This document shows, one piece after another, positions 5,517 through 25,978 of a stretch of DNA of 64,000 nucleotides. Positions within the stretch are counted from its first letter, which is position 1. Each line of letters opens with the position of its first letter. The translations under genes and the position numbers were made by a program. Under the pieces are notes generated by a model that did no database searches, was not told the DNA's origin, and saw only the letters and a list, made by a program, of their open reading frames with translations. The stretch is from Anaerolineae bacterium (GTDB taxonomy: Bacteria > Chloroflexota > Anaerolineae > UBA3071): contig JARYMM010000005.1 of the NCBI GenBank assembly GCA_029907105.1, positions 8,563 to 72,562 on the forward strand. Reading direction: 5' to 3'.

Positions 5517-5536
5517 CCCCCTATCTGTGCCGATTT

Positions 5537-5672
5537 GTAACTACCCTGTCACTGCGAGCGAAGCGAAGCAGTCTCCTGGAATCATGAAGAGATTGCTTGG
5601 CCCTTTCGGGGCTCGCAATGACGCCAACCCACCGCTATATCTCACGTTGCCAGGCCGAAGGTAGGCAGTTAC
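5537..5672 (+). mobile_element. family-A MITE-like structured repeat, copy 1 (136 bp)
   Basis: Terminal inverted repeats GTAACTACC.../...GGTAGGCAGTTAC. Flanked by a perfect 8-bp direct repeat GCCGATTT (target-site duplication). Internal nested hairpins. It lies in the 5' leader of giant gene 1. Confidence 0.6.
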
Positions 5673-5791
5673 GCCGATTTACCGATCACCAATATCTTCC
5701 TGCCCTCTCCTTCGTCATCACGTTGTGGAGGATATGCGCCTGTCACGGGCTTTCCAGGCGCAAACCCAACGGTAAATCCAAGGAGGACGCG

Positions 5792-8700: not shown

Positions 8701-11700
8701 GACGCCTACCCCAACGCCGACACCTGGGGCCACGCCCGGTCCGGCCTGTTACGAGGCGCTGGTCAACGGCGGCTTCGAGACCGATGCCGGGTGGGTCATC
8801 CGCCCGAACCCTGTCCTGGCGGCTTACGTCACGACGCCGGTGCACGGTGGGACGCGCAGCATGCGCACCGGCATCGCCGCCGGCGGGGCCAATGTGGAAA
8901 GCTACTCCCCCGTTGAGCAAAGCATCCGCATTCCGCCGCTGCCCTTCCCCGGCATGGCCTCCACGGCCCAGTTGAGCTTCTGGCGCTACAACGTCTACGG
9001 CGACGGCGGCGCGGCCAGCACCCAGAGCACATCGCCGGACCTGAGCGCATTGCCGCGCAGTGAGGCCGAGTTGGCTGCGGCTACCTTTGCCAGCGATTTC
9101 TTCTACGCCATCATCATCCAGGAGGACGGCACCATTGACTGGCTGCTGGTGGAGCGTGTTCACAATCCCTCCTGGCGGTTGATGACGACCTCTCTGGACA
9201 TCGGCCGTTACGCGGGCAAGACAATCCGCCTGCAGTTCGGCACCTACAACAACGGCACAGGCGGCATCAGCCGCACCTATGTGGACGATGCCTCGCTGCA
9301 GGTATGCCCGCCGGCCGGCGCGCTGCTGCTGCCTGGCGGCTGGGTGCGCCGGGTGATCGGACGGCCGGAGATGAACACCCTCTACGCTGACGTGGGCGGT
9401 GCGCTGTATCGCTCCGACGATGCCGGGGCGCACTGGCGTCTGGCGGGCATGGCCCGTCCGGAGCATACCATCCTCAGCGCCAACCCGAACGTGCTTTACG
9501 CCGGCGACGGCTATCCGTGCTACGCTGGCGGCGATCCAGCGCCCATGTGGCGCAGCACCGACGGCGGGGCAAGCTGGCATCAACTGCCGGCCGGCCTCAA
9601 CCTGAAGCCGCTGGCCGCCCATCCTGTGGACGCCCGGCTCTATGCCGCCGGCTGTGACGGCCCTTACCTGAGCCCGGACGGCGGGGCCACCTTCGTCCAC
9701 CAGCCAGACCCGCTCTTCAGCATCTACGATGCCAGGTCCATCGCCCCTGTGGGCACGGCCTGGACCGACGTCTGGATCGGCGGCGTCAGCGAAGGCGGTG
9801 GCGGCGGCATACTGGTCAGCCGCGATAGCGGCGACACTTTCGCCATTTCTTATCCCAAGGCGGGGGATCCGGAGCCGGGCTGGCTGGGCAGGCTGGCCCT
9901 GGATCGCTTCCGGGCAGGCGGTGTCTTCGCCCCGGCGTACTATGGTTTCTTCTATACCCCCAACGACGGGGAAGCCTGGCTGAACCATTCGCAAGGGCTG
10001 GAAGAGGTCACCGGCGGCATCCGCCCGTCGGGACTGCACGTGGTGATCCAGGACCCGCTTGGCGGCCCGGACGGCCGGCTCTTCCTGGGCACCGAGCGCG
10101 GCCTGTACACGCGCGCCCCAAACACGCTCCTGTGGTACAAGATCGCCGGCCAGCCCTTTGACCTGCTGCCTGTGCGCGACCTGTTGCTGCTGGACGGCGC
10201 GCCGCGCTGGCTCTACGTGACCACCTCCTTCGGGGTCTTCCTGTACGATGTAACGCATGTGCCCCCGGCACCCACACCGACTTCCACGCCGACGAGCCTG
10301 CCCAGCCCGAGCCCTACGCCAACCCGGACAGCCACATCCACAGCGACACCCACGCCCGCTGCCACGACCACCCCGACGGCCACGCGCACATCAACAGCCA
10401 CGCCGACAGCCACCCCGACGGCCATCCCCACGGCGACGCCGGGCGTCTGGCCGACGCCATACGTGTTGCGCACGCTGAGCCTGCCGACGGGCAGCCATCC
10501 GCACGGCATCGGCCTGGATGGCCCGGGCGATCGGCTCTATGTAGCCTTCCATGGCCCAGATCACACCGGCCACACCCTGGGCGTGGTGCGTACCCTCACC
10601 CTGGACCTGATGGCCCAGGCCGAACTGAGCCCCAGCATCGGCCCCAACGGCGTCACTGCCCTTCTCCCAGGAGCCCGGATCGCCGTGGCCAACCGCCAGA
10701 CAGACGACGTAGCTGTGGTAGACCGCAACACATTGGCGGTTGTCCGGCGCATCCCGGCCGGCGATATGCCCGACGGCGTCATCGTTCAAGGCAATTTCGG
10801 CTACGTCGCCAATTTCGGCAACGACACGGTGACCGTGTTCGACCCCGTGAGCCTGGACGTGCTGCACACGCTGCATGTCGGCCACGAGCCGTCGCTCTTC
10901 GCTGCCGACCCGGAGGCCGGTGACGTGTACCTGTCGCTGCATGGCTCGAACCAGGTCGCCCGCCTGCACGACGGCGCGGTGGTCGGCCTTTACAACGGCA
11001 TCCAGGAACCCTATGGCCTGGCCTTCGACCCGGCCAGCCGGCGGCTCTATGCCGCCAACCGCGGCTGGGCGCATACGGTCACGGTGATTGACGTGATCAG
11101 CGGAAACGTGGTGGGCACTATCGGTGTGGGCAGGGAGCCATTCGTTCTGGAGGTGAACCCCAACAGTGGCCACCTGTTCGTGGTCTGTGGCGACGAAGTG
11201 AAGGTCTACCGCACGCTGGACTGGGCGCCGGTGGTCAACATCCCCGTGCCGCCTGGCGCCGAAGAGGGCATCGCCCTGCACAACGCCCTGAACCGCGTTT
11301 ACGTCACCAGCGGCGAGGGCGATGCGCTGACCGAAATTCAGGATGCCGCACCGCCGCTGGTCCTGTTCGCCAGCAACCGGGACGGCAATGGCGAGATCTA
11401 CCGCATGTTGCCCGACGGGCAGGAGCAGATCCGCCTGACCTTCACCGCCGAGGCTTACGAGACCAGGCCGGTGGGCTCTCCTTACGGACGCTGGATCGCC
11501 TATGAGCGGACGGACCCCGGCGGCACCACCCACCTCTGGCTGATGAGCCGCGATGGCCGCAACCCCCGCCAGCTCACCTTCGGCAGCAGTTACGAGCACT
11601 GCCCTGCCTGGTCCGGTGACGGCACCAGGTTGGCCTTCACCTCGAACCGGGACGGCAACTGGGAAATCTACACCCTGCGCCTGGCCGACGGCCTGGTGAC

Positions 11701-12175
11701 CCGCCTGACCTTCCATGCCGCAGCCGACGAGGGCCCCAACTGGTCGTGGGCCACAGGCCAGATCGTCTTCCAGTCCGACCGCTTTGGCCCGAATTCCGAG
11801 ATCTTGCGCATGGAGGCCGACGGCAGCGGCGTGGTGCGGCTGACCGTCAACCCCAACGGGGACAGCAGCCCGAGCTGGTCGCCGTCCGCTGATCGGATCG
11901 TCTTCTTCGGCAGCCGCGCCGAGCAGACACTGCACGTGATGCGGGCCGACGGTTCCGGCATTGCGCCGCTCGTCCCGGGCAGCCTGCGTCCGGCGGCTCC
12001 GGCCTGGGGCCCGGCCAGCGCGGGGGACGTCATCGCCTTCCAGGGGTATCGGCCCGGCAGCGGGCATAGCGAGATCTTCCGCGTCGCCCCCAATGGCAGC
12101 GGTTTGGTGCTCTTGACGTTCAACGCCGTGGACTTCGACTATGCGCCAGGGTGGCTGCCGGCGCCATCCCGGTAA
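5792..12175 (+). CDS. giant secreted multidomain protein: BNR/Asp-box beta-propellers, 2 CBM4/9/22-like modules, Thr/Pro linkers, YVTN beta-propeller, TolB-like PD40 propeller
   Basis: Start reassigned to ATG 5792 (RBS AAGGAGG, signal peptide MKTRILLLLALALGLAG). The tool ORF from 5597 reads through the MITE. Many S-x-D-x-G-x-T-W boxes (STDGGASW, STDRGNTW and others). VNGGFE...VDDASL jelly-roll modules twice. TPTPT linkers. YVANFGNDTVTVFD-type YVTN repeats. C-terminal DGNGEIYRM / DGNWEIYTL PD40 repeats. Confidence 0.8.
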   Translation: MKTRILLLLALALGLAGLGLSGGVQRLEAASSRPWDSAASPQKAEAEWGDWRSGGPYGGDVQALALSPDFGADGLALAGGWRTGYAGPTGYGIARTTDGGASWALLFSGPPWDDLAVFDLAISPAFAADGTAFAATEAGLLRSSDRGNTWTQLHGGLPGPGNDATVDDMGFVRLSPAFAADGTLLTAPRNGSLYRSTDRGNTWTEVLSGPTSAAAFSRFFAANHTAFATQFDGVGATNLRRSTDGGLTWPLVLSLPGVQVNDILETFENALLLATNDGVLRLLPVGGSYVPDTVSPDIEGPVYRLAAAGDHLYAAAQNGLFITLTEGRRWDRYADTPVTPFRSVAPCPYWGSCHAMMAGTHTGILGTPDDNLIPWAWLPGPHALHSESVAASPAYAADGTLFAATDHGLFRSTDRGLSWQLMVAGSPPGDDYAFLRVRISAGYASDGTVFATYENRTLALTALYKSTDRGLTWTVIPGLGGGRALALSPAYPTDRTVFVGRVDVLHKSTDGGNTWTSYPIAPPDEGFFVLELETSPAYASDRTLLATGLGRVRRSTDGGVTWQNLNTYGPSYGLAISPNYAADGTAWHTYRAIEAPGDDTPESGVLRTTDRGTTWSFATAGLPGVYEPFAWPLAASPGFAVDRSLFTALRGQFVAGTEHSLYRSMNGGDTWLKLGHAPGNPNPYDLAVTTNPSGGLTVHMATDAGVWHYSSRCEERLVNGGFEQDLAWQFPVTTYPADYSTSVAHSGLRSLRTGIVSGPDVYSYSSANQAVTIPAGVSSATLTFWWYPISAEGPLAAAAEPDAARLQAVAEGTLPAGVLAGDRQYALLLDSAGHTLKTLLWTRSDARTWQQASFNLAAYAGQAVRVHFGTYNDGDGRSTAMYVDDASLIVCWPGPVEPTPTVTPTNTPTPRLTPTSTPTSTATPTRLPLTPRAYLPLVLRRHTAPRTPTPTATPTRTTTATPTATRTPTATPTPTPTPGATPGPACYEALVNGGFETDAGWVIRPNPVLAAYVTTPVHGGTRSMRTGIAAGGANVESYSPVEQSIRIPPLPFPGMASTAQLSFWRYNVYGDGGAASTQSTSPDLSALPRSEAELAAATFASDFFYAIIIQEDGTIDWLLVERVHNPSWRLMTTSLDIGRYAGKTIRLQFGTYNNGTGGISRTYVDDASLQVCPPAGALLLPGGWVRRVIGRPEMNTLYADVGGALYRSDDAGAHWRLAGMARPEHTILSANPNVLYAGDGYPCYAGGDPAPMWRSTDGGASWHQLPAGLNLKPLAAHPVDARLYAAGCDGPYLSPDGGATFVHQPDPLFSIYDARSIAPVGTAWTDVWIGGVSEGGGGGILVSRDSGDTFAISYPKAGDPEPGWLGRLALDRFRAGGVFAPAYYGFFYTPNDGEAWLNHSQGLEEVTGGIRPSGLHVVIQDPLGGPDGRLFLGTERGLYTRAPNTLLWYKIAGQPFDLLPVRDLLLLDGAPRWLYVTTSFGVFLYDVTHVPPAPTPTSTPTSLPSPSPTPTRTATSTATPTPAATTTPTATRTSTATPTATPTAIPTATPGVWPTPYVLRTLSLPTGSHPHGIGLDGPGDRLYVAFHGPDHTGHTLGVVRTLTLDLMAQAELSPSIGPNGVTALLPGARIAVANRQTDDVAVVDRNTLAVVRRIPAGDMPDGVIVQGNFGYVANFGNDTVTVFDPVSLDVLHTLHVGHEPSLFAADPEAGDVYLSLHGSNQVARLHDGAVVGLYNGIQEPYGLAFDPASRRLYAANRGWAHTVTVIDVISGNVVGTIGVGREPFVLEVNPNSGHLFVVCGDEVKVYRTLDWAPVVNIPVPPGAEEGIALHNALNRVYVTSGEGDALTEIQDAAPPLVLFASNRDGNGEIYRMLPDGQEQIRLTFTAEAYETRPVGSPYGRWIAYERTDPGGTTHLWLMSRDGRNPRQLTFGSSYEHCPAWSGDGTRLAFTSNRDGNWEIYTLRLADGLVTRLTFHAAADEGPNWSWATGQIVFQSDRFGPNSEILRMEADGSGVVRLTVNPNGDSSPSWSPSADRIVFFGSRAEQTLHVMRADGSGIAPLVPGSLRPAAPAWGPASAGDVIAFQGYRPGSGHSEIFRVAPNGSGLVLLTFNAVDFDYAPGWLPAPSR

Positions 12176-12337
12176 CTGCGGCCTGTTCGTTGGCTGACGA
12201 TTTCAGCGCGGAGGACGCCGAGCCCGCTGAGAAAAGCCTCCGAATTCCCTTACTCTGCATTCTCTGCGGCCTCTGCGGCACAACGGCCAATACTTTGGGA
12301 AAGCCCTTTTCGAGCATTGAGACAAGGAGAACTGAAC

Positions 12338-15300
12338 ATGAGAAAGCGGATTCTGCCCCCACTCGTCCTGGCCCTGATCCTCAGCGTCCTGACCCTGGGC
12401 ACCGCAAGCTGGGCCCTGGAAAGCGGAAACGCACAGGTTGTATACCCAATATCCAATCTCCAATCTCCAACTTCCGACTTCCAACCCCTGACCTCCGGCC
12501 CGCGCGGCGGCAGCGTGGCTGCCGTGGCCATCTCCCCCAACTTCCCCAGCGACCGCATCGCCTTCGCCGGCGTGCGGGGGTATGGTGTCTACCGCTCCAC
12601 CAATGGCGGCTGGAGCTGGGAACGGGTCACCCCCGACGAGGAGCGCTCCGGCTGGGCCATCGGCGACCTGGAGGTGTCGCCCGCCTTTCCGGACGACGAG
12701 ACCGTGTTCGTACTGACGAACATCTGGACGTATGGCGGCAACGTCTACCGCTCCACCGACGGCGGCGACACCTGGTATCCGCCGCAGAGCCATCCCGATG
12801 GCATACTGCCCGGCCTGCGCGCCCTGGCCGTCTCCCCCGATTTCGCCAACGACCAGACGGTCTACGCCCTGCACAGTTCGCGCAGCCTGGTCTCCACTGA
12901 CGGCGGCCGCCACTTCACCGACCTGCCCGACTGGTTCGGCGGCCAGAACGTGCAGGTGCTGGCCTTCTCGCCCCGCTACGCCACAGACCGCATCCTCTTC
13001 GCCGTCGCCGGCGGGACGCTCTACCGTTCCACCAATGCCGGCGGGAGCTGGACAGCCATCGGCGCCGGGTTGCCCGGCTCCCCGGAGGTGCTGGCCGTGG
13101 CCCCCGGCTTCGCCCATCCGGGGCCGCTGCTGGCCGTCTCCTCGCTGGATCACGCCGTTTACTTCTCCAGCGACAGCGGCGACCACTGGGTAGCGAGCGA
13201 CCTGACCCTGGGCGCGAGCACCAGGCCCTGGCTGGCCTTTGCCCCGGACTACCCCAGCAGCCTGGTCGCCTTCGCCGGCAGCGGCGGGCCGACGGGCGTC
13301 TATCGCTCCACCGACGGCGGGTTGCATTGGCAGGTGGTGGGTGAGCCGACCGAGGATGGCAACGGCTTGCCCGGCCCCAACTCCTTCGACATGGCCTTCT
13401 CGCCCGCCTACGCCACCGACTATCTCAGCCTGCTGGCCACCAGTGCGGGCGTCTATCGCACGGCCAGCCCCGGCGACCCGCCGCCCTGGTGGCCGCGCAA
13501 CGACGGCCTGCCGCGGCTGCCCGTGGCCCGCATCGCCGCCGCCCCGGCCTGGACGAACACCCTCTTCGCCGCCACCTCTTTCTTCGAGACGGTGCGCGCC
13601 TACTCCACCAGCAGCCGCTACGACGGCAACATCCACCGCTCCACCGACGGCGGCCAGACCTGGCAGCCGGTCAGCCCGCGCCTCGACTCCGTGCAGGCCC
13701 TGGTCATCTCGCCCAACTTCCCCGGCGATCACACCCTCTTCGCCGCCACCGGCTACCTGGCCGGGCACGGCCAGCAGGGCGGCACCGTCTACCGCTCCAC
13801 CGACAGCGGCCTGCACTGGGAGGCCGTGGGCGACCTGGTTTACATCCACGACCTGGTCATCTCGCCCGACTACGGGCACGATCGGACGCTCTTCGCCAAC
13901 GCCCAGTACAGCACGGGCATGCCTGTGGGACCGGGCATCTTTCGCTCCACCGACGGCGGCGAGACCTGGACGCGCCTCAGCGACATGTTCCCGGCCTGGC
14001 TGGCCATCTCGCCCAACTTTGCCGACGACAACATCCTCTTCGCCGCCACGCCCGCCAGCCTCTACCGCTCCGCCAACCGCGGCGCCAGCTGGACGCCGGT
14101 GCTGGGCGGCAGCTTCTCCGCACCGCCGGTCATCTCGCCGCACTTCTGGCTCGACCGTACCGCCTACGTGGTCAACGGCGATCAGCTCTACCGCTCCAAA
14201 GATGCCGGGCTCACCTGGCAGCCGGTGGCGGATGATCTGCCCGACGGGCCAGGGCCTGTGCTGCGCTTCGGCCCGGCGGACGGTCTGACGACAGTCGTGG
14301 GTGGAAGCGTAGGAACTGGGGGAACTCAGGGGACTCAGAGTATTGTTTTCCATTCCACCGACGGCGGCAGCCACTGGCCCTCCCTGGACGGCCCGCTGCC
14401 CATGGGCGTGGACGATATGCTCTGGTACCGCTCCGTGCCCGGCAACATGTGGACGCTTTTCGCTGCCGGCGACGACGGGCTGTGGTCGCTGCGCTGGGCC
14501 GAGGAGGCCCCCTGGTTCGGCGAGTGGCGCAGCGGCGGCCCCCGTGGCGGCCAGGCGCTGGCCATTGCCCTCTCGCCGGAATTCGCCAGTGACGGCCTGG
14601 TCTTCGCCGGCGGCGGCCAGTGGCTCTCCGGTCGCGGCGACCGCACCGGCAAGGGGCTTTTCCGCTCCGCCGATGGCGGCCAGACCTGGATGGCCAGCGG
14701 CAAAAGCACCTTCAGCGGCTACGCCAGTTCCATCGAGGACGTGGACATCTCCAGCCACTGGCCCAGCGACGGCACAGCCTTCGTCGGCACCTGGGGCGGC
14801 GTCTACCGCACTACCGACTGGGGGGCGACCTGGCAGCGGGTGGCCGAGGAGGTGCTGCACACGCCCGGCGCGGCCACCACCGTGGCCATGTCCCCCGGCT
14901 TCTACCTGGATGGCATCGTCCTGGCCGGCGGCGGCTACGGCGGCCTGTTCTACACCGAAGATGGCGGCGACCACTGGCAGATCACCCTGGGGGAGATCGG
15001 CCCCTCCGCCGACGTGGCTTTCTCGCCTGCCTTCCTGGCCGATACCACGGCCTTCGCCGGGGCTTACGATGGCGTCTGGCGCACGGAGGACCGCGCCGCC
15101 CACTGGGGCCACGTCCTGGACCTGGACAGCGGCTCGGTCAGCGACGTGGAGGTCTCCTGTGACTTTGAAAACGACCGTACCGTCTACGCCGCCACCTGGA
15201 TCGGCACCGCGCCGCCGTACATGATGCGTTCCACCGACGGCGGCGACACCTGGCACGTGGCCGACAGCGGCCTGGACCGCCTGATCAACGCGATGGACAC

Positions 15301-18300
15301 CGCCTGCGACGGCGGTAGCACCATCCTCTTCGCCGGCGGCACGGCTCTCTTCCGCTCCACCGATGGCGGCGAAAGCTGGCAGATGCTCCCCGGCTGGCCG
15401 GAAGGGGTCAGCATCCAGGAACTGGCCGTCTCGCCGCAATTCGCCAGCGATCACACGCTGCTGGCCGGCACCTACGCCGGCGTTTACCGCTCTACCGACG
15501 GCGGGGCAAGCTGGACGCTGAGCGAAGGCTTCGTGCCCCTGGAGACGCGCGTGGTGGCCCCCTCGCCCGCCTATGCCGCCGACGGCACGCTGTTTGCGGG
15601 CACGGAGATGGGAGTCTATCGTTCCACCGACCGGGGCCATAGCTGGCAACCGGCCAACAAGGGGCTGGTGGGCAGCTACGCCGTGACCATTCTCGACGTC
15701 GTCGTCTCGCCCCAGTTCGCCAGCGACCACACGCTGTTCGCCTCCTGGAAGCTGAGCGGCCGCATCGGCGGCAACGTCTACCGCTCCACCGACGCCGGAG
15801 AAAACTGGGAGCGGCTCTGGGGCACGGGATACGTCGGTGACCTGGCCATCTCGCCCCAGTTCCCTGGCGATCAGACCCTCTTCGCCGTCGCCGAGGGCAT
15901 GGTCTTCAAGTCCACCGACGGCGGCGTGAGCTTCACGCCCAAACTATCCGAGTTGACGCCGGCGGTGGAAATCGGCATCTCGCCGCAATACGGCAGCGAT
16001 CACACGGTGTACGCCGTGGGCTATGGCCCTGTCTACCGCTCCACCGACGGCGGCGAGACCTGGTTGCCGCTTGCCGGCTGGCCGCCTCACTACGGCATCG
16101 GCCTCTCGCCCGCCTTCGGTGCCGACGGCACGCTCTTTGCCACCTACCGGGAGATCGAGGGCTCCGGCCTGCGGCCGGAGAGCGGCGTCATCCGCTCCAC
16201 CAACCGCGGCGCGAGCTGGGACCTGGCCACGGCTGGACTGCCCGGCACCTACGAACCATGGCCGCAGTCACTGGCTCTCTCGCCTGATTTCGCCACCGAT
16301 CGCATGCTCTTCACCGCCGTGAGCGGCATCCCCCACCTGGGGCCGAACCAGGTCTACGGCTCGGCCAGCGCGGGCGATGGCTGGGCCCCGCTGCCGCCCA
16401 TCCCCGGCGAGCCATCCCTCTACAAGCTCTCGGTCAGCTCCCCTCTCCCTCTGGGAGAGGGGCCGGGGGTGAGGGAACTGCACGCCGGCACTGCGGCGGG
16501 AGCCTGGCATTACTCGTCGGCCTGTTTCAACGCCATCGCCAACAGCGGCTTCGAGTTCGACACCGGCTGGACAATGCCCATCACGCCCTATCCCGCAGCC
16601 TACAGCACCGACCTGGCGCACAGCGGCTATCGCTCGCTGCGCACGGGCATCCCCCCTGGCGGCCCCAACATGCTCAGCTACTCCTCTGCTTACCAGACGG
16701 TGAGCATCCCCGCCGGCGCCGCCTCGGTCACGCTGCGTTTCTGGGAGTACCCGCTTTCCGGCGAGGCCAGCCAGCTCAAGATGCCGGCCCACGTCAACCC
16801 CCTGACCGCCTCCCTGGCCGTGGACGCCCAATACGTCCTGGTGCTCGACGCCAGCGGCCAGTGGCTGCGCACGCTGCTCTGGCAGGCTGCGGACAGTCGG
16901 CTGTGGACCCAGCACCAGTTCGACCTCAGTGACTATGCCGGCCAGACCATCCGGCTGCATTTCGGCACCTACAACAACGGCACAGGCGGCCTCACGGCCA
17001 TGTACGTGGACGACGTCGTGCTGGAGGTCTGCCCGGAGCTGCCGCCCACGCCCACGCCGACACGCACGCCCACGGCGACGCCCACCGTCGGCCCCAGCCC
17101 CACCCCCACGGCCACACCGGTGCGCGACCGCTTCCAGTACCTGCCGTTGGTGCTGAAGCGCTATGTGCCGCCGAGGCCCACGCCGACGGCCACACCCACC
17201 CGCACGCCCTCGCCGACACGTACTCCGACGCCGACCTTCACGCCGTCGCCCACCGTCGGCCCCAGCCCCACGGCCACACCCACACCCACGCCCAGCGGCG
17301 CATGCACGGAGGCCGTGGTCAACGGCGGCTTCGAGACGGATGAGGTCTGGGTGCGGCCGGTGACGGCCATGCAGGCTGTTTACAGCACTGCCGTCGCTCA
17401 CGGCGGCACCCGCTCCATGCGCACCGGCATCCCCGCCGGGGGCAGCAACATCCTCAGCTACTCCTCGGCTTACCAGACCATCACCCTGCCCCCTGGCCCT
17501 GGCACGGCCACGCTGAGCTTCTGGTACTATCCTGTGTCCGGCGAGGCGACGGCAACGACTTCCCAACTTCAAGCCGAGGGAGGGTATTCGATATTGGATA
17601 CCAGATATTCCAATATCCAGTACCCGATATCCAATACCCAATATCCATCCTTCAGCCCTGCCGCGGCGGATCGGCAGTATGCTTTGCTACGTGATGGGGC
17701 CGGCACCTGGCACGTGCTGCTGTGGACGCTCTCCAACGCCCGCACCTGGCTGCGCTATGAGGCGGACCTTTCTGCCTATCGCGGGCAGACGGTGCGGCTG
17801 CACTTCGAGACCTACAACGACGGCGTGGGTGGCACCACGGCCATGTACCTGGACGACGTCAGCATCCAGGTCTGCCCGCCGACCCCGCCGACGCCCACGG
17901 CCACCCTGACGCCGACGCCCACCCGCACGCCGCCGGCGGACGCCTTGATCATCAACGGCGAATGGGTGCACGGCCTGGTGGGTCACCGCGCCAGCAGCAC
18001 GCTGTATGCCTACAGCGCCACCCACCTCTACCGCTCCAACGATGCGGGCATGACCTGGGCGACGGCAGGCAGCGCCGTGGGCGAGTTCCTGATGAGCCCG
18101 GCCAATCCCAACGTGCTCTACCGTGGCCCCGGCTACCCCTGCCTGGCCGGCGGGCCGGACGTGCCCATGTACAAAAGCACTGACGGCGGAGCGAGTTGGT
18201 TCGAACTGCCGGCGGGACTGAACCTCAAGGTTCTGGCAGCGCATCTGACCGACCCCAACCGCGTCTACGCCGCCGGATGCAATGGCCCCTACCTCACCAG

Positions 18301-20071
18301 CGACGGCGGCGCCACCTGGACGCATCAGCCCTCGCCGCTATGGGGCGTCCTGGAGGTGAAGCACATCGCCCCTGTGGAACCGACCTGGCAGACGGTGTAC
18401 GCGGCCGGCGTCAGCGAAGGCGGCGGCGGCGCAATCCTCAAGAGCAGCGACGGCGGCGCGACCTGGCAACAGGCGACGCCGCTCTACGCCGACATCTGGT
18501 GGATCACCGACCTGCTGGTGGACCCGGCCAATACGCTGGTGGTGCGCTTCACCGAGCCGCACATGCCGTGGTGGAGCCGCGACGGCGGCACCACCTGGTG
18601 GTGGAGCTGGTCCGGCCTGCATGACGTGGTCTATAACCCCGGCGGCCCGCCCGATCAGACCTACGGCCTCTACGACCTGGAGCTGGACGCCGCCGATCAC
18701 GAGCAGCTTTACCTGGGCACCATCCGCGGGCTCTACGTCAGCGGCGACGGCGGCTGGGCCTGGTACAAGGTCACGGGCGGCCATACGTGGGAGAATGCGC
18801 CCCTGGGCAAACTGCTGCTCCTGGAAGCGGCGCCCACGAAGCTCTACCTGGTGCGGGGTGGGCAGCAAGGTGTCCATGTCTTCGACCTGGGCGGCCTGCC
18901 CCCCATCCCCACACCGACGCCGACCAACACGGTGACGCCCACGGCCACGCGTACTCCCACGCCCACAGCGACGCGCACGCCGACACCCACCCCCACGCGT
19001 ACACCCACCGGCACAGCGACGCCCACCGCGACGCGCACGCCGACGCCGGCGGCGCCCTATGTGCTGGCGACCATTGCCCTGCCCGCAGGCAGCCACCCGC
19101 ATGGCGTGGCCCTCGACCTGGCCGGAAACCGCGCCTTCGTCGGCCATCATGGCCTGAACCACGACGGCCATGCCCTCTCCGTCATTAACGGCAACACGCT
19201 GGCCGTGGCAGCCACCATTGACCTGGGGACAGCAGCGCAAGGACCCAATGGCGTCGCTTACCACCCGGCCACGGATCGGGTCTACGTGGCCAATCGCAAC
19301 AGCAACAACGTCTCCGTGGTCAATCCGACGGCGGGCATCGTGGTCAAGCATCTGCCTGTGGGCTCCATGCCCAACGGCGTAGCTGTGGTGGACAACCTGG
19401 TGTACGTGGCCAACTTCAACGACGGCACGGTGACGGTGATAGACGCCAGCACAGCCACGGTGGATCACACCATCCCGCTAGTGGGGACGCAGCCGTCGCA
19501 CTTCGCCGTGGACCAGGCCCAGAGCTACGCCTATCTGAGCCTGCATGGCGACGGGGCGGTGAGCTACCTGCACGACGGCGACCGCTGGAACTATCTTCCC
19601 GGCATACCCGAAGCCTATGGGATTGCCTTCAATCCTGTGGCCCGCCGGCTGTACGTGGGCAGCCGCGGGTTCCACCACAGGGTGACGATGGTGGATGTGG
19701 ACACGAACACCCAGCTGGGCGCGTTCCCGGTGGACTGTGAACCGTACATGCTGGGCGTCAACCCCAACACGGGGCACTTCTTCGTCGTCAACAGGGACTT
19801 CGTGCAGGTACGGCGCACGGCAGATACGACCCTGGTGACCACGCTGCCACTGCCCATCGGGGCGGAGGAGGGGATCGCTGTGGACACGGTGCGCAACCGC
19901 GTCTACATCACCAGCCGCGACTCGGACACGGTGACCGTAGTGCAGGATACACCACTACCTGTCACTGCGAGCGAAGCGAAGCAGTCTCCTGGAATCAATA
20001 GGAGATTGCTTCGCCCCTTCGGGGCTCGCAATGACGCCAACTCAACGCTATATCTCACGTTGCAAGGCTGA
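12338..20071 (+). CDS. giant secreted multidomain protein, paralog of the upstream gene: BNR/Asp-box propellers, CBM-like modules, Thr/Pro linkers, YVTN propeller
   Basis: Start ATG 12338 (RBS AAGGAG, signal peptide MRKRILPPLVLALILSV). More than 25 Asp-box motifs (STNGGWSW, STDGGDTW and others). NSGFEFDTGW and VNGGFETDEVW CBM-like modules. TP linkers. YVTN repeats. The last ~38 codons and the stop come from the family-A MITE copy 2. Confidence 0.8.
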   Translation: MRKRILPPLVLALILSVLTLGTASWALESGNAQVVYPISNLQSPTSDFQPLTSGPRGGSVAAVAISPNFPSDRIAFAGVRGYGVYRSTNGGWSWERVTPDEERSGWAIGDLEVSPAFPDDETVFVLTNIWTYGGNVYRSTDGGDTWYPPQSHPDGILPGLRALAVSPDFANDQTVYALHSSRSLVSTDGGRHFTDLPDWFGGQNVQVLAFSPRYATDRILFAVAGGTLYRSTNAGGSWTAIGAGLPGSPEVLAVAPGFAHPGPLLAVSSLDHAVYFSSDSGDHWVASDLTLGASTRPWLAFAPDYPSSLVAFAGSGGPTGVYRSTDGGLHWQVVGEPTEDGNGLPGPNSFDMAFSPAYATDYLSLLATSAGVYRTASPGDPPPWWPRNDGLPRLPVARIAAAPAWTNTLFAATSFFETVRAYSTSSRYDGNIHRSTDGGQTWQPVSPRLDSVQALVISPNFPGDHTLFAATGYLAGHGQQGGTVYRSTDSGLHWEAVGDLVYIHDLVISPDYGHDRTLFANAQYSTGMPVGPGIFRSTDGGETWTRLSDMFPAWLAISPNFADDNILFAATPASLYRSANRGASWTPVLGGSFSAPPVISPHFWLDRTAYVVNGDQLYRSKDAGLTWQPVADDLPDGPGPVLRFGPADGLTTVVGGSVGTGGTQGTQSIVFHSTDGGSHWPSLDGPLPMGVDDMLWYRSVPGNMWTLFAAGDDGLWSLRWAEEAPWFGEWRSGGPRGGQALAIALSPEFASDGLVFAGGGQWLSGRGDRTGKGLFRSADGGQTWMASGKSTFSGYASSIEDVDISSHWPSDGTAFVGTWGGVYRTTDWGATWQRVAEEVLHTPGAATTVAMSPGFYLDGIVLAGGGYGGLFYTEDGGDHWQITLGEIGPSADVAFSPAFLADTTAFAGAYDGVWRTEDRAAHWGHVLDLDSGSVSDVEVSCDFENDRTVYAATWIGTAPPYMMRSTDGGDTWHVADSGLDRLINAMDTACDGGSTILFAGGTALFRSTDGGESWQMLPGWPEGVSIQELAVSPQFASDHTLLAGTYAGVYRSTDGGASWTLSEGFVPLETRVVAPSPAYAADGTLFAGTEMGVYRSTDRGHSWQPANKGLVGSYAVTILDVVVSPQFASDHTLFASWKLSGRIGGNVYRSTDAGENWERLWGTGYVGDLAISPQFPGDQTLFAVAEGMVFKSTDGGVSFTPKLSELTPAVEIGISPQYGSDHTVYAVGYGPVYRSTDGGETWLPLAGWPPHYGIGLSPAFGADGTLFATYREIEGSGLRPESGVIRSTNRGASWDLATAGLPGTYEPWPQSLALSPDFATDRMLFTAVSGIPHLGPNQVYGSASAGDGWAPLPPIPGEPSLYKLSVSSPLPLGEGPGVRELHAGTAAGAWHYSSACFNAIANSGFEFDTGWTMPITPYPAAYSTDLAHSGYRSLRTGIPPGGPNMLSYSSAYQTVSIPAGAASVTLRFWEYPLSGEASQLKMPAHVNPLTASLAVDAQYVLVLDASGQWLRTLLWQAADSRLWTQHQFDLSDYAGQTIRLHFGTYNNGTGGLTAMYVDDVVLEVCPELPPTPTPTRTPTATPTVGPSPTPTATPVRDRFQYLPLVLKRYVPPRPTPTATPTRTPSPTRTPTPTFTPSPTVGPSPTATPTPTPSGACTEAVVNGGFETDEVWVRPVTAMQAVYSTAVAHGGTRSMRTGIPAGGSNILSYSSAYQTITLPPGPGTATLSFWYYPVSGEATATTSQLQAEGGYSILDTRYSNIQYPISNTQYPSFSPAAADRQYALLRDGAGTWHVLLWTLSNARTWLRYEADLSAYRGQTVRLHFETYNDGVGGTTAMYLDDVSIQVCPPTPPTPTATLTPTPTRTPPADALIINGEWVHGLVGHRASSTLYAYSATHLYRSNDAGMTWATAGSAVGEFLMSPANPNVLYRGPGYPCLAGGPDVPMYKSTDGGASWFELPAGLNLKVLAAHLTDPNRVYAAGCNGPYLTSDGGATWTHQPSPLWGVLEVKHIAPVEPTWQTVYAAGVSEGGGGAILKSSDGGATWQQATPLYADIWWITDLLVDPANTLVVRFTEPHMPWWSRDGGTTWWWSWSGLHDVVYNPGGPPDQTYGLYDLELDAADHEQLYLGTIRGLYVSGDGGWAWYKVTGGHTWENAPLGKLLLLEAAPTKLYLVRGGQQGVHVFDLGGLPPIPTPTPTNTVTPTATRTPTPTATRTPTPTPTRTPTGTATPTATRTPTPAAPYVLATIALPAGSHPHGVALDLAGNRAFVGHHGLNHDGHALSVINGNTLAVAATIDLGTAAQGPNGVAYHPATDRVYVANRNSNNVSVVNPTAGIVVKHLPVGSMPNGVAVVDNLVYVANFNDGTVTVIDASTATVDHTIPLVGTQPSHFAVDQAQSYAYLSLHGDGAVSYLHDGDRWNYLPGIPEAYGIAFNPVARRLYVGSRGFHHRVTMVDVDTNTQLGAFPVDCEPYMLGVNPNTGHFFVVNRDFVQVRRTADTTLVTTLPLPIGAEEGIAVDTVRNRVYITSRDSDTVTVVQDTPLPVTASEAKQSPGINRRLLRPFGARNDANSTLYLTLQG

Positions 20072-20085
20072 AGGCAGGCAGTTAC
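19966..20085 (+). mobile_element. family-A MITE-like repeat, copy 2 (5' truncated or diverged left end)
   Basis: About 90% identical to copies at 5537 and 23901 from CTGTCACTGCGAGC to GGCAGTTAC. Lacks the GTAACT left terminus and has no target-site duplication. Overlaps the 3' end of giant gene 2. Confidence 0.55.
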
Positions 20086-20208: not shown

Positions 20209-20589
20209 ATGTACCAGAACACGGTCATCGTGGGAAATCTGGGCCGCGACCCGGAAATGCGCTACACGCCCAGCGGCATCCCCGTCACCAACTTCACCGT
20301 AGCGGTGAACGAGCGCTGGGTAGATCAGGACAACCAGCCGCAGGAACGCACCACCTGGTTCCGGGTCACGGCGTGGCGCAAGCTGGCCGAGGTATGCAAT
20401 CAGTATCTCAGCAAAGGCCGGCAAGTGTTGGTGGAAGGCCGGGTCAGCGCCTCGGCCTGGCAGAATCAGGCCGGAGAGCCACAGGCCACCCTTGAGCTCA
20501 CGGCGCGGACAGTGAAATTCCTGGGGCGGCGGGAGGCTGCTGAGGTCGAGGGGCCCATAGAGGAGGAAGAGGAGATCCCTCCGTTCTAG
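20209..20589 (+). CDS. ssb: single-stranded DNA-binding protein
   Basis: MYQNTVIVGNLGRDPEMRYTPSGIPVTNFTVAVNERW matches the SSB OB-fold N-terminus. Acidic C-terminal tail EEEEIPPF. RBS AAAGGAG 8 nt upstream of this ATG. The tool ORF starts earlier at a TTG. Confidence 0.85.
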   Translation: MYQNTVIVGNLGRDPEMRYTPSGIPVTNFTVAVNERWVDQDNQPQERTTWFRVTAWRKLAEVCNQYLSKGRQVLVEGRVSASAWQNQAGEPQATLELTARTVKFLGRREAAEVEGPIEEEEEIPPF

Positions 20590-20608
20590 CAGTTTGTCGG
20601 AGAGGGCC

Positions 20609-20711
20609 GTCATTCTGAGGAGCGGGAGCGGCCGAGCTGCCGGAGCGACGAAGAATCTCACTTCACAGCCAAAAACGAGATTCTTCGGCCCCTTCGGGGC
20701 CTCAGAATGAC
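20609..20711 (+). repeat. family-A-prime structured element (103 bp), architectural relative of family A
   Basis: Outer stem GTCATTCTGAGG/CCTCAGAATGAC. Inner hairpin CGAAGAATCTC...GAGATTCTTCG. GCCCCTTCGGGGC tetraloop hairpin. Same three-stem layout as family A with compensatory stem changes. Sits in the convergent ssb / lipid-kinase intergenic region and is nested in a longer palindrome (arms about 20595-20604 and 20743-20752). Confidence 0.5.
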
Positions 20712-20827
20712 AAAATGAACGATGTTTTGTGTCGGCACCTTTCTCTCCGACAGGTTGCCGGAGACCTTGGGCGCGAATGAAGCAGACCTCCGAGGTCCGG
20801 GAGACCTCGGAGGTCTTTTGGCTGCGG

Positions 20828-21746
20828 CTATATGCGCACGGTGAGCGCGCCGGGCAACAGGCGAAAAGTGGCGGGCGTTTCCCCCACGTACTCGCCATCG
20901 GCCTGCAGGATCAGGCGCTGTGGCGATTCCACCTGCACGCGGCGGGAGCGGTAGGCGTCCACCTTGGGGTGGCTCAGGTGTGTGCCGCGATAGACGCGGG
21001 GCACCTGCATCAGCAATTCCAGCTTTGTGACATCGCCGATGACGATGACGTCGAAAAGGCCATCGTCAGGGGTGGCGTCCGGCGCAATGTGCATGCCCCC
21101 GCCGAAGTAACGCCCGTTGGCCACGACGACGGCATTGGCCCGCTGCTCCCATGTGCGGTCGTCCAGGGTGATGGTTACGGGCTTGTTCTCGTAGGTGATG
21201 AGGGTGAGGAGCAGGCCGGTAAGGTAGGGGATGGTGCCGCCGCCAGCCTTGGACATGCGGTTCACCCGGGCGGCCACCTCGCCGTCGAAGCCCAGGCCGG
21301 CGGCATTGGGAAAGCACTCGACGACCTGCCGCCCCTCGCGCCAGCAGTGGATGACCCCCAGGTCAATGCGCCGGTCCGAGCCGTGTGTCAGCCGGCGGAC
21401 AGCCGCCAGCGGGTCCTGCGCCAGGCCCACGGTGCGGGCAAAGTCGGACCCTGTGCCGCAGCAGATGGCACCCAGAACCACCCCTGCGGGAACCTCATAT
21501 TCAATCACCAGGCCGTTGACCACCTCGTGCATCGTGCCGTCGCCACCGACGGCAACAATCAGGCGGCACCCCTCGGCCACAGCCTGGCGAGCCAGCTCCA
21601 CGGCGTGGTCGGGGCCTTCGGTGAACACATAGTCGAACTCCGTCCCCCCGGCGTGCAACTCCTCGCTCAATCGTGGCCACAGCTTTGCCCCCCGGCCGTT
21701 TCCGGCCACCGGATTGACGATCAGTCGCATCGGTTGTGCGCTCATC
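20828..21746 (-). CDS. diacylglycerol kinase family lipid kinase (YegS/DagK-like)
   Basis: MRLIVNPVAGNGRG...VAVGGDGT DAGK catalytic-domain motifs. Start ATG 21746 with RBS GGAGGAG. Confidence 0.75.
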
Positions 21747-21953
21747 TTCTCCTCCAGCGGTCGTAGACAGGCACACAAGGCGGGTTATCCCTGTCCACTT
21801 GTTTCCCTGTCTACCTGCAGGGCTTGCGCAGCGATTGAGCGCAAGCCCCAACACGTAGGGGGCAGGGGATGAGCGAGGGGACACCCCTCGTACTCCCCGG
21901 GCTTCCGCTACGCACGCCCCCTGCATCCTCCCTCTAGGCATCTGGCGGCTTTT

Positions 21954-22002: not shown

Positions 22003-23442
22003 ATGCGATACGCGAAACTGGACGCCCTGCTGCTGACCCTGCTCGTCATGGCCCGGGTGCGCATTGACACCCTGGCCGAAGCCGCCGTGCTCCCCCTGCG
22101 GCAACAGGATGTGGCCCGCCACCCGCTGCTGGGGCGGCTGCTCTCGCCTGCGGCCATGGAACTGCTGGCCCAGCAGGGCTTTGCCGACCCCATCACCCTG
22201 CTGCTCATCGTGCTGGCCCTGGCCGCGCTGGCCGCTTACCTGATCCTCAGCTTCAGCTCCGGCCAGCTCAGCCGCCGCGGCTACCGGGCCAGGCTGGCCC
22301 TCATCTGGCTCATCGTGGTGCTGACCGTCGTCGCCCCCACGTTGAAGATGACGCTGCTGCGGGAGCAGAGCGGGCCGGCCAGTTATTGCCACGACGGCGG
22401 CGTCATCCAGACTGAAGTTACCATCGAGTATCTTCTCAGCGGCCGCAACCCCTACGTTGAGGACTACCTGCAAACGCCCATGGCCGAATGGGGGTTGAGC
22501 GAGTTCCGCACGGCGCTCTACCATTACCCTTACCTGCCCTGGACCTTCGTTTTCTCGGCACCATTTTACGGGTTGAGCCAGGCAGTCCTCGGCTGGTACG
22601 ACCAGCGCTTCGTCTATCTCTTGCTGTTTGTGCTCACCCTGGCCCTGGCCCCGGCGCTGGCCGGCGGGCGCCAAAGCAGGCTGTTGCTGGTCATGACTTT
22701 GGGGCTCAACCCCATCATGGGCAGCGACATCATCTTCGGCCAGAACGACAGCTTCGTGCTCTTCTGGATTGTGCTGGCGCTGGTGCTTCTGGCCCGTGGC
22801 AAGGAGATGACCGATGAGCGCCGCGCCACGCCCTGGCGGCTGGGCTCGGCGGCGGCTTTCGGCCTGGCCTGCGCTTCCAAGCCCACGGCCTGGCTGCTGG
22901 TTCCCTTCTACGTGCTGCTGCTCGTGCCAGCGTCGTGTGCCGGCCAGGAGACCGGCGCCAACCGGAGGGGGTGGGCTCGCTGGCTGCTGACTTTGCTGCG
23001 CCGGGCCTGGCCGGCCCTGGCACTCTTCCTGCTCCTCGTTTTGCCTTATCTCATCTGGGACGCCGGGGCCATGGTGGACGACGTATGGCGCTGGGCGAGC
23101 GGGCGCGGGGAGCACGCTTACCAGATCTGGGGCTGGGGCGCTTCCAATCTGCTGCTGGCGCTGGGCTGGGTAAACTCCCGCTTCGACACCTGGCCCTTCT
23201 GGCTGCCGCAGCTTCTCGTCTGTGGGCCGCTTTTGGCCTTTCTGCTCTGGCGGCAGTGGCGGGACAATCGCATCGCCGCTGCGAGCAGCGGCTACGCCGT
23301 CTTCCTCCTGGCCTTCTTCTTCCTCTCTCGCTTCCTGAACGAAAACTACCTGGGCTACATCCTGGCCTTTCTGGCCCTGGGCGTGTTCGGAGGGGGAAAA
23401 GAAGCGCAAAGGGAGCCTTTCAGCCCCGGTTTGGCGTCATAG
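22003..23442 (+). CDS. polytopic membrane protein, possibly a GT-C-type (DUF2029/GT87-like) glycosyltransferase
   Basis: More than 10 predicted TM segments. Trp/Arg-rich loops resembling PMT/ArnT-like lipid-linked glycosyltransferases. Family assignment is tentative. Confidence 0.4.
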   Translation: MRYAKLDALLLTLLVMARVRIDTLAEAAVLPLRQQDVARHPLLGRLLSPAAMELLAQQGFADPITLLLIVLALAALAAYLILSFSSGQLSRRGYRARLALIWLIVVLTVVAPTLKMTLLREQSGPASYCHDGGVIQTEVTIEYLLSGRNPYVEDYLQTPMAEWGLSEFRTALYHYPYLPWTFVFSAPFYGLSQAVLGWYDQRFVYLLLFVLTLALAPALAGGRQSRLLLVMTLGLNPIMGSDIIFGQNDSFVLFWIVLALVLLARGKEMTDERRATPWRLGSAAAFGLACASKPTAWLLVPFYVLLLVPASCAGQETGANRRGWARWLLTLLRRAWPALALFLLLVLPYLIWDAGAMVDDVWRWASGRGEHAYQIWGWGASNLLLALGWVNSRFDTWPFWLPQLLVCGPLLAFLLWRQWRDNRIAAASSGYAVFLLAFFFLSRFLNENYLGYILAFLALGVFGGGKEAQREPFSPGLAS

Positions 23443-23449
23443 TTCGTAT

Positions 23450-23674
23450 CTACGCTGGCCGTAAGGTGGCCTGATGAGCCGCTTCAGCGCGGGCGACGTT
23501 GGCCTCGATTTCCTGTACGAGGGTGGTTATCTCCGGTGCCAACTTCGTATAACCGCAGCGCGGCGTTCGACATACGTACCAGGCCACACCGCGCAAGATG
23601 ACACGACCTCCGGCCAGGTGCAAGTCAATGCGGCGCATATCCATACCACCCCCGCAGCGATCACAGCGGCTCAC
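23450..23674 (-). CDS. YgiT-type zinc-finger domain protein (MqsA N-terminal-like)
   Basis: CDRCGGG...(26 aa)...VAWYVCRTPRCGYT matches the C-x2-C...VPAWVCxxCGExY YgiT zinc-ribbon pattern (recalled). GTG start. Confidence 0.45.
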   Translation of the reverse strand: MSRCDRCGGGMDMRRIDLHLAGGRVILRGVAWYVCRTPRCGYTKLAPEITTLVQEIEANVARAEAAHQATLRPA

Positions 23675-23687
23675 GCGCTCGCTCCAC

Positions 23688-23804
23688 TCAAAGGTAAACC
23701 ATTCCCCCTCTCATCATCTCCCCGGTGTCTGTAGCGTCCCAATACGCCGCTTCCTCGGCTATCGCCTGACGAATAGCTTCTCTGTCCGCTTGTTTTTCGC
23801 TCAT
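23688..23804 (-). CDS. small acidic ORF (38 aa) upstream of and co-oriented with the zinc-finger gene
   Basis: ATG preceded by GAGGAGATC. Product MSEKQADREAIRQAIAEEAAYWDATDTGEMMRGGMVYL. Stop lies 13 nt before the zinc-finger GTG. No homology recognised. Confidence 0.3.
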   Translation of the reverse strand: MSEKQADREAIRQAIAEEAAYWDATDTGEMMRGGMVYL

Positions 23805-23900
23805 GATCTCCTCAGCCTCCTGTAACGGTGCTTCTCCCCCCTTGTCATATCACGAGCCGTGACCACGTAGAAGACGTCGTCGTAACTTCTGTCCAGAACG

Positions 23901-24042
23901 GTAACTACCTACCCTGTCACTGCGAGCGAAGCGAAGCAGTCTCCTGGAATCGAAACAGGAGATTGCTTCGCCCCTTCGGGGCTCGCAATGACGCCAGCCC
24001 ACCGCTATATCTCACGTTGCAAGGCCGAAGGTAGGCAGTTAC
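23901..24042 (+). mobile_element. family-A MITE-like repeat, copy 3 (142 bp, intact termini)
   Basis: Left end GTAACTACCTACC and right end GGTAGGCAGTTAC form a 12/13-bp terminal inverted repeat. Flanked by direct repeat CCAGAACG (8-bp target-site duplication). Confidence 0.6.
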
Positions 24043-24280
24043 CCAGAACGACGAAAAGATACCGGCCGGCAAAGGTTTGCCCGTAGACATGATAACGGGG
24101 CAATCCGTAGCGAGTGATCCCTGCTCGGCGGGCCAAATGGTTGCCTGGTTCGCAGACCTCCTCTACCTCCCAGGGTTCCACGCCGTGCTCGGCGATATGT
24201 TGTACGTTCCACCCATCCTATTCGAGCTCTTCAATGCGCATGCATGTCCTCGCTGCCTCAGTACCCCGCTACCTCGGTGC

Positions 24281-25978
<1,698 letters not shown>

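Follow-up and report, generated by a model that had tools for sequence, protein, structure and literature searches.

Does the palindromic element at positions 20609-20711 of the window, i.e. the stretch of 64,000 nucleotides of contig JARYMM010000005.1 from an Anaerolineae bacterium that was analyzed here, act as a structured RNA on behalf of its host, or is it a piece of mobile DNA? The question goes back to an initial annotation, which had compared the element to a similar repeat in the window, family A, and had taken the concerted differences between their stems as compensatory evolution of a transcribed RNA with three stems. In order to answer it, we compared the element, referred to below as winB together with the mobile element copy around it, with orthologous loci, metagenome copies and similar palindromes in other genomes. 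The results show that a miniature inverted-repeat transposable element (MITE) inserted at a CTAG overlapping the stop codon of ssb in the lineage of this genome, and that the core of winB is a head-to-head dimer of two CGTC-tagged repetitive extragenic palindromic (REP) units, one per strand. Very probably, the element thus forms the palindromic center of a decayed MITE, in which it consists of two CGTC-type REP units, and represents ordinary selfish DNA rather than a dedicated regulatory RNA. The apparent compensatory evolution of a riboregulator is accounted for by two REP unit types in two MITEs, which removes a false lead.

Two MITE families, one of them at the ssb stop codon

For the comparison of orthologous sites, two syntenic relatives were available, L121 (about 90-93% nucleotide identity) and L123 (about 84%), which have the gene order subtilase - giant open reading frame (ORF) - ssb - yegS - 472-aa gene - methylmalonyl-CoA mutase in common with the window. 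The closest homologues of the SSB and YegS proteins of the window bear Anaerolineae names. In the window, ssb lies on the + strand with its stop codon at 20587-20589, and the gene of the YegS/DAGK lipid kinase lies on the - strand at 20828-21778. The spacer between the two genes measures 238 nt in the window vs 59 and 62 nt in the two relatives, and window positions 20590-20775 correspond to 13 nt in L121. Since the left CTAG contains the ssb stop codon, L121 has a single CTAG at this site and the orthologous flank resumes after a CCGG, the MITE was assigned to positions 20590-20757. All four elements of the window, winB and three copies of family A, are absent from the orthologous sites in L121 and L123. 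The features of the winB locus are as follows:

20586-20589, + strand: left target-site duplication CTAG, the TAG of which is the ssb stop codon; the empty site of L121, gttCTAGagagcc, has a single CTAG
20590-20757, + strand: MITE copy of family B (winB), 168 nt, decayed, based on the alignment with metagenome copies and the empty site in L121
20590-20604, + strand: left terminal inverted repeat CAGTTTGTCGGAGAG (family consensus CAGCCTGTCGGAGAG)
20609-20711, + strand: head-to-head dimer with the tags pointing outward, identical to the element of the initial annotation, based on sequence and fold
20608-20659, + strand: REP unit with tag CGTC (20608-20611), arm ATTCT (20612-20616), arm AGAAT (20652-20656) and tail CTC
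20676-20712, - strand: REP unit with tag TGTC, followed by ATTCT-GA-GGCCCC-GAA-GGGGCC-GA-AGAAT (23.8 bits, E = 0.0014 with the unit model R1 described below)
20743-20757, - strand: right terminal inverted repeat, CAACCTGTCGGAGAG on this strand, based on the family B alignment
20758-20761, + strand: right target duplication, CTAG decayed to CCGG; the orthologous flank resumes at 20762 (AGACC; AGAGCC in L121)
20784-20826, + strand: intrinsic terminator of ssb, outside the MITE and kept in the relatives without the MITE

Further copies of family B were obtained from metagenomes in a scan that was anchored solely on a 24-mer of the 3' unit. The scan yielded eight copies (L129, L142, L151, L155, L182, L193, L206 and L221), of which L142 and L193 (182 nt each) align end to end with winB, and the other six are partial copies that match it. 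The homology among the eight copies reaches far past the core and stops at perfect 15-nt inverted repeats, CAGCCTGTCGGAGAG ... CTCTCCGACAGGCTG; CTAG is present on both sides of every copy, and the flanks beyond are unrelated. Compared to these copies, winB shows 85% identity and deletions of 13 nt and 1 nt. Its decay is apparent from mutations in both inverted repeats, the degraded right duplication, the 13-nt deletion and a degraded sub-hairpin, and has probably been going on since insertion. The substitutions relative to the family B copies are, however, unevenly distributed, with 0/58 in the stems vs 22/110 (20%) in the remaining MITE (Fisher p = 5e-5). The minimum free energy (MFE) of winB as RNA is -50.5 kcal/mol (z = -4.96), and 0/200 shuffled sequences folded equally well. 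The palindromic architecture is thus constrained and no chance match, and the claim of selection on structure holds to this extent, but not for a three-stem RNA. Because the locus itself is not conserved, we do not ascribe the constraint on the core to the host; it would rather come from selection on the mobile element or from homogenization among its copies. In a more distant relative (L127, positions 10753-11113; YegS 82% identical), an unrelated palindromic insert, gcgggctgcgggggcgccttcggcggccccgcagcccgc, was found in the same ssb-yegS spacer, and insertions may land there repeatedly.

The elements of family A constitute another MITE, delimited by 13-nt inverted repeats (GTAACTACC.../GGTAGGCAGTTAC) and an 8-bp target duplication that is perfect at two copies. 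As whole dimers, all of its cores lie on the + strand, at 5548-5622, 19961-20035 and 23916-23992. The copies are the following:

5537-5672, + strand: family A copy 1, with the 8-bp duplication GCCGATTT at 5529-5536 and 5673-5680
19955-20085, + strand: family A copy 2, truncated at its 5' end
23901-24042, + strand: family A copy 3, with the 8-bp duplication CCAGAACG at 23893-23900 and 24043-24050

Together with winB, these copies document recent arrivals of MITEs at four sites, namely at the ssb stop codon, downstream of the subtilase gene (copy 1), at the 3' end of an ORF for a giant surface protein that became longer as a result (copy 2), and in a BrnT-like toxin gene (copy 3). At the site of copy 1, window positions 5517-5680 correspond to 24 nt in L121. 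At 19955-20085, L121 and L123 have a different spacer, and the giant ORF at 12317-20071 (2584 aa) lost its stop codon through copy 2 and an adjacent deletion, so that it now ends inside the MITE at 20071. As a side observation, the orthologous giant ORF in L121 and L123 ends in a stop codon followed by a palindromic terminator-like spacer; in the window, copy 2 has taken the place of both and added about 39 MITE-encoded codons to the ORF. Copy 3 splits the BrnT-like ORF on the - strand; when this copy and one copy of the duplication are excised in silico, the ORF becomes continuous again and matches PF04365 over the junction (E = 2.7e-7, 31.3 bits; cut-off 34.5 bits). Window positions 23399-24282 around it correspond to 60 nt in L121; the approximately 820 nt missing from L121 and L123 hold a small toxin-antitoxin-like module on the - strand with the interrupted BrnT-like ORF. 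No backbone without core was found in the window or the fetched loci, and no further copies were found in the window. The right end of family A, GGTAGGCAGTTAC, resembles a spacer motif in a family from gut metagenomes, GGAAGGCAGTTAC, a likeness that we judged to be probably coincidental.

Two further observations concern the giant ORFs of the window. A second giant BNR/PT-repeat ORF at 5597-12175 (window 5799-12363) has no direct orthologue in L121, where a single such gene lies between subtilase and ssb; this reflects either the insertion of a paralogue in the lineage of the window or a loss in the relative. Extensive 6-, 12- and 18-nt periodic repeats (Pro/Thr-rich and related) in the giant ORFs, at 8485-19071 and 41541-63000, dominate repeat searches.

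REP units and the pairing that the changes preserve

The stems of winB were located exactly where the initial annotation had placed them, with the outer stem formed by GTCATTCTGAGG (20609-20620) and CCTCAGAATGAC (20700-20711), the inner stem by CGAAGAATCTC (20649-20659) and GAGATTCTTCG (20677-20687), and the GC hairpin by GCCCCTTCGGGGC at 20688-20700; a fourth small hairpin at 20623-20642 had not been listed. Relative to family A, three pairs of the outer stem of winB differ on both sides; its inner stem has one pair fewer and A-T in place of one G.T. The GC hairpin, supposedly identical in family A, is exact in copies 2 and 3 but has one mismatch in copy 1. In family A, the three stems as drawn have bases in common: the GC hairpin overlaps the inner and the outer arms by 2 bases each, and the MFE structure retains only 3 pairs of the GC hairpin. 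Copy 1 has, in addition, three uncompensated stem substitutions, and its MFE is -34 kcal/mol vs -46 to -48 kcal/mol in the other copies.

The recurrent module in these sequences is a unit of the layout (C/T)GTC - 5-nt arm (ATTGC, ATTCT or ATTCC) - GA - short G+C stem - GNA triloop - stem - GA(A) - complementary arm - tail (CCA or CTC). As a hairpin, it has a 5-bp stem, followed by tandem G.A, a short stem of 1-6 bp and the GNA triloop; there are only 5 contiguous Watson-Crick pairs per unit, and 9 pairs are reached if the tandem G.A and a 2-bp top are counted. The stem starts with A-T and T-A, for which T>C / A>G variants occur. In the 133 dimers examined, GTC is preceded by C in 60% and by T in 35%. 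The linker seen most often in 246 units is GA-GC-GNA-GC-GA(A), where N is A, C, T or G, and longer linkers form stems with compensatory changes, e.g. GC/GC to AC/GT; the tail is CCA in 113/246 (46%) and CTC in 55/246, the window units having CTC. A GNA triloop is present in 84/101 units with a parsable top. In winB, one of the units has GAA and the other carries a long insert. In this second unit, at 20608-20659 on the + strand, the long linker carries the degraded sub-hairpin (20623-20642), the family B consensus of which is GGCGGC-GAA-GCCGCC. The unit at 20676-20712 on the - strand folds as single-stranded DNA into (((((..((((((...))))))..))))) with -9.1 kcal/mol. The GC hairpin that had been called "UUCG" is the complement of the GAA-triloop top of this unit (GCCCC-GAA-GGGGC). 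We rejected the reading as a UUCG tetraloop, as the loop is in triloop register and the loop on the tag strand is GNA throughout the family, with variable N and the complement TNC.

A covariance model, R1, was built only from units of other genomes and applied to the window. It recovered seven units and nothing else, three of them on the + strand (43.6 bits) and four on the - strand (23.8-35.6 bits); the unit at 20608-20659 was missed because of its long insert. As isolated DNA, the - strand units of the window fold exactly as predicted. The earlier statement that all copies are + oriented is therefore correct for whole dimers (4/4, with a chance of 1/8) but not for units, which are found on both strands. 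The core of family A is a dimer of the GCAAT unit type, in which one unit is the ACTGC/GCAGT variant and the tags are TGTC and CGTC. The differences between family A and winB thus correspond to two REP unit types, GCAAT and AGAAT, on two unrelated MITEs, and there is no compensatory evolution at one locus.

In the elements from the genome scan described below, the 5-nt blocks of the outer and the inner stem are always of the same type (GCAAT, AGAAT or GGAAT), so that the motif occurs four times per element and concerted changes can be read as preserving either the arms within each unit or the long outer and inner stems across the two halves. In order to distinguish between these two pairing schemes, we examined heterodimers, i.e. 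dimers whose halves differ, after locating the inner blocks by a parse that was blind to complementarity. The heterodimers numbered 8 in genomes, 15 in viral contigs, 11 in metagenomes, the scan of which had fixed the 3' unit alone, and 3 in family A. In 37/37 cases, complementarity is perfect inside each half and lost across the halves, with 0 cases of the reverse. Of the pairs, 99.8% are paired within halves, with 6 pairs changed on both sides, vs 97.8% and 4 pairs across halves. The T>C / A>G variant, which makes up the two "wobble" positions of the initial annotation, is compensated only within halves. Since heterodimers keep only the complementarity within units, the concerted changes preserve the arms of the units and not the outer and inner stems. 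The differences that had been interpreted as compensatory stem changes are real, but the pairing that they preserve is a different one. The distal part of the inner stem, which comprises the complementary ends of the spacer, shows strong covariation across halves (score of 0.56 vs 0.22 in shuffles). The two hairpins of a dimer are nearly identical and inverted relative to each other, which allows an alternative fold into a single long hairpin with side hairpins; the three-stem fold is a by-product of this arrangement. These results point to a more general trap in covariation analysis: inverted dimers of hairpin units mimic stem covariation in two pairing schemes, and only heterodimers discriminate between them.

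Separately, single REP units and dimers, including a further arm type (ACCGC/GCGGT), were found densely arrayed on a Caldatribacterium contig (L100, 370-2260), on either side of about 750 nt (roughly 950-1700) that have the size of an ORF but no annotation.

Strand evidence and alternative explanations

As support for an RNA, the initial annotation had stated that both odd positions of family A are G-U wobbles on the + strand. This is true for the inner pair, but the outer one reads C.A on the + and G.U on the - strand, being unpaired in the + fold and paired in the - fold. The MFEs of the two strands are near equal (-46.3 vs -45.2 and -48.5 vs -48.0 kcal/mol), and family A folds without strand preference. 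The same was observed for 64 dimers between co-oriented genes, in which the sense strand was the stabler one in 30 and the antisense strand in 33 cases, with a mean difference of 0.003 kcal/mol (Wilcoxon p = 0.79). The unit with the longer linker was 3' on the sense strand in 26 vs 14 cases, a weak bias that is not significant. In the inverted-repeat stem of winB, three C>T changes leave G.U on the + strand, and the whole MITE has an MFE of -76.0 vs -69.9 kcal/mol, again a difference that is not significant. The Rfam search that had been proposed yielded nothing relevant for the elements at gathering score in the window and 18 loci, and nothing around the elements even at E <= 10; the best match near them was a spurious miRNA with 22 bits vs a threshold of 75. 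Pfam searches on six-frame translations of the elements gave nothing. A full-text literature search returned only primer and plasmid coincidences for the DNA strings of the elements and nothing for spurious peptides (LRFARNDG and similar). The only Rfam match above gathering score in the window is a Group I catalytic intron at 45340-45621 on the - strand (52.5 bits vs 50).

In the scenario that we favor, the MITEs would be moved in trans by DDE transposases that recognize the terminal inverted repeats, and insertion would create the 4-bp CTAG duplication of family B and the 8-bp duplication of family A. The REP dimer would either be carried along passively or contribute to the spread of the element, and its constancy would be due to the mobile element and not to the host at this locus. 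Lying in the 3' untranslated region (UTR) of ssb between the stop codon and a pre-existing terminator, the winB hairpin may incidentally affect mRNA stability. Several points weigh against this scenario. The absence of changes in the winB stems reveals a constraint on the core but does not distinguish between the element and the host locus as its level. Mobilization by a DDE transposase is suggested solely by the repeats and the target duplications; no autonomous transposase with matching inverted repeats was encountered, the genome and metagenome scans having been directed at the core patterns. With standard energy parameters, the long hairpin is more stable as DNA than two separate units (-27.9 vs about -16 kcal/mol); tandem G.A and GNA motifs, which are known to be stabilizing, lie outside this energy calculation. 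Because of the unit design shared across phyla, the unchanged stems of winB and the lack of a linked transposase, we also consider, as a rather unlikely possibility, that CGTC-type REP units are the substrate of some very widespread enzyme or process that recognizes hairpins of single-stranded DNA or RNA, or that unrelated MITE backbones repeatedly gain dimers because these promote transposition, e.g. by bringing the ends together.

Since ssb ends upstream of winB and its terminator follows downstream, winB is very probably transcribed with the ssb mRNA, in its 3' UTR, and a structured RNA selected by the host, either in this UTR or as a separate small RNA with a three- or four-way junction, could act as a stabilizer, processing site or riboregulator. 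The very stable fold with its unchanged stems, the G.U pairs left on the + strand and the location of the dimers in other genomes, mostly downstream of genes (64 co-oriented, 24 convergent and 9 divergent vs 315/100/91 in the baseline), are in line with such a function, and an RNA role is regarded as plausible for related repeats in the text of Di Nocera et al. (PMC3733652). We nevertheless consider it improbable, as the closest relatives lack the element at the orthologous site but retain the terminator, as neither the 64 oriented dimers nor the cores of the window show any strand asymmetry, and as the concerted changes track units instead of RNA stems. The mistaken wobble of the outer stem, the lack of an Rfam family, the uncompensated damage in family A copy 1 and the presence of copies inside coding sequence point in the same direction. 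No finding of this study points to selection of winB as RNA, and the transcribed structured RNA under selection of the initial annotation is not upheld. Even less can be said for a terminator or attenuator of ssb or yegS: a strong G+C-rich hairpin just downstream of a gene would suit such a role, but no T-run follows the element and a canonical terminator, conserved in relatives without the element, is located 70 nt downstream, which makes this explanation extremely improbable.

Alternatively, as in a REPIN in the strict sense (see below), the dimer itself could be mobile as single-stranded DNA by means of a Y1 (HUH) transposase similar to REP-associated tyrosine transposases (RAYTs) and could have inserted into pre-existing palindromes, the inverted repeats of the "MITEs" being the target palindromes. 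The tagged hairpins with GNA triloops and tandem G.A, typical of stable hairpins of single-stranded DNA, and the head-to-head dimers would be expected in this case. Moreover, the same core is found in two different backbones of one genome, and dimers lie within lineage-specific longer palindromes in many genomes, as described for H. neapolitanus and T. roseum in the text of PMC3733652. On the other hand, the whole backbone including the inverted repeats is repeated and missing from the empty sites, the target duplications (CTAG; 8 bp) are direct, which Y1 transposases do not make, and a backbone without core was encountered neither in the window nor in the fetched loci. A tblastn search with two Y1 queries found no Y1 transposase in the window and 0.96 Mb around the elements, which is weak evidence as only local sequence was covered, and none is linked to CGTC repeats in the text of PMC3733652. 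We therefore regard this explanation as quite improbable and return to the MITE carrying a REP dimer for the comparisons below.

Distribution and comparison with known systems

In order to assess how widespread the core is, one genome per species was scanned with the pattern GTCAYTSYGAG-N50-80-CTCRSARTGAC. Among the matches listed, with taxa taken from the record titles, the core is present in more than ten phyla; the hosts include Alpha-, Beta- and Gammaproteobacteria, Bacteroidota, Chloroflexota, Patescibacteria, Planctomycetota and Acidobacteriota as well as Gemmatimonadota, Cyanobacteria, Bacillota, Atribacterota and endosymbionts, and the 11-mer GTCATTGCGAG is likewise shared by over ten bacterial phyla and by viral contigs. 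As the genome and viral scans required dimers, the dimer frequency in them is no unbiased estimate. According to a crude gene caller that was validated separately, divergent spacers are avoided (9/97 dimers vs 18% of the baseline gaps), and the median distance from the dimer to the upstream stop codon is about 40 nt. The dimer pattern was also observed in viral contigs (IMG/VR scan, at least L248-L367), and phages or prophage regions that carry the repeats may be a route across phyla. In the metagenome scan (L128-L247), a very abundant family was seen, largely on contigs from human gut and other metagenomes, with dimers of about 125 nt and a conserved 60-nt spacer; many of them are heterodimers with ATTCC/GGAAT in the 5' unit and ATTGC/GCAAT in the 3' unit, and both orientations occur on one contig (L137, L183). 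Longer, lineage-specific inverted repeats surround the dimers in L060, L077, L050, L076, L079, L092 and L107, with the same nested design as in the window; examples of such flanking palindromes are GGCTGCGGAAAAA.../...TTTTTCCGCAGCC in Acidobacteriota and CCTCAGTTTGAAAT... in Solimonas.

With regard to known systems, the units of the window belong to the superfamily of CGTC-tagged REPs, among which Neisseria dRS3/NIME units are also counted. The assignment of the window units is based on the text description and the supplementary peptides, not on consensus sequences, of Di Nocera, De Gregorio and Rocco (2013, BMC Genomics 14:522; PMC3733652). According to this source, CGTC-tagged REPs have an unpaired CGTC/TGTC (or CCTC) tag, a stem of 8-9 bp starting with A-T pairs, a loop of 4-5 nt and a 3-nt tail that is mostly CCA. 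They form mainly head-head dimers with outward tags and spacers of 20-100 bp, often with complementary ends; heterodimers are frequent, and the dimers are located in spacers of co-oriented or convergent ORFs, close to 3' ends, some being intragenic, with no linked transposase in the text. Dimers of H. neapolitanus are nested in a longer palindrome, as are those of T. roseum, for which unoccupied targets are also described, and the superfamily includes Rickettsia RPE-4 and RPE-6 (PMC3733652). The repeats described here resemble them in the tag (CGTC on the + and TGTC on the - strand of winB), the A-T start of the stem, the short CCA or CTC tail, the head-head form (4/4 elements of the window), the spacers with complementary ends, the heterodimers, the sites downstream of ORFs, occasional copies within genes, the lack of a linked transposase in the local sequence searched and the nesting in palindromes. 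They differ from the uninterrupted stems of 8-9 bp with loops of 4-5 nt in PMC3733652, e.g. ATTCCCGC-GAAA-GCGGGAAT (back-translated from the supplementary peptides), by 5 Watson-Crick pairs, tandem G.A, a stem of 1-6 bp and a GNA triloop. Because of these differences in stem and loop, we consider them a different member of the superfamily. By record titles, they extend the superfamily beyond the five phyla given in the text of PMC3733652, which do not include Chloroflexi, to Chloroflexota, Patescibacteria, Planctomycetota, Acidobacteriota, Bacillota, Atribacterota and others.

Other short repeats are less similar. Integron attC sites, CRISPR repeats, parS, dif sites and the ends of IS200/IS605 were considered and rejected because of an incompatible tag, architecture and target duplication. 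The mini-hairpins of the d(GCGAAGC) type reportedly described by Hirao et al. can be compared to the commonest top of the units, GC-GNA-GC, in which N is free and which is embedded in a larger repeat unit here. REP doublets forming hairpins (REPINs) and RAYTs, which Bertels and Rainey (in 2011) and Nunvar et al. (in 2010) are said to have introduced, reportedly consist of inverted doublets of short hairpin units that can be folded as one long hairpin. REPINs carry a GTAG tag and go together with a single-copy RAYT gene that has REPs on both sides; they are for the most part confined to particular lineages. Here, too, the unit and not the long hairpin is the recognizable module, but the tag is CGTC and the target duplications point to a mobilization of the DDE type.

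MITEs such as Correia/NEMIS, ERIC and Nezha measure 100-200 nt, have terminal inverted repeats and target-site duplications, are polymorphic for presence and absence, insert beside or in genes and are co-transcribed as RNA hairpins. The elements of the window likewise have inverted repeats (15 nt in family B, 13 nt in family A), target duplications as compared to an empty site and multiple copies in unrelated flanks. In contrast to Correia/NEMIS, ERIC and Nezha, two unrelated backbones of one genome share a conserved internal palindrome that is also found across phyla. Relative to the CGTC-tagged REPs in the text of PMC3733652, the dimers described here are demonstrably located inside MITEs with inverted repeats and target duplications. 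CGTC dimers are thus shown to travel inside MITEs, which bears on the question of how CGTC repeats spread without a transposase of their own.

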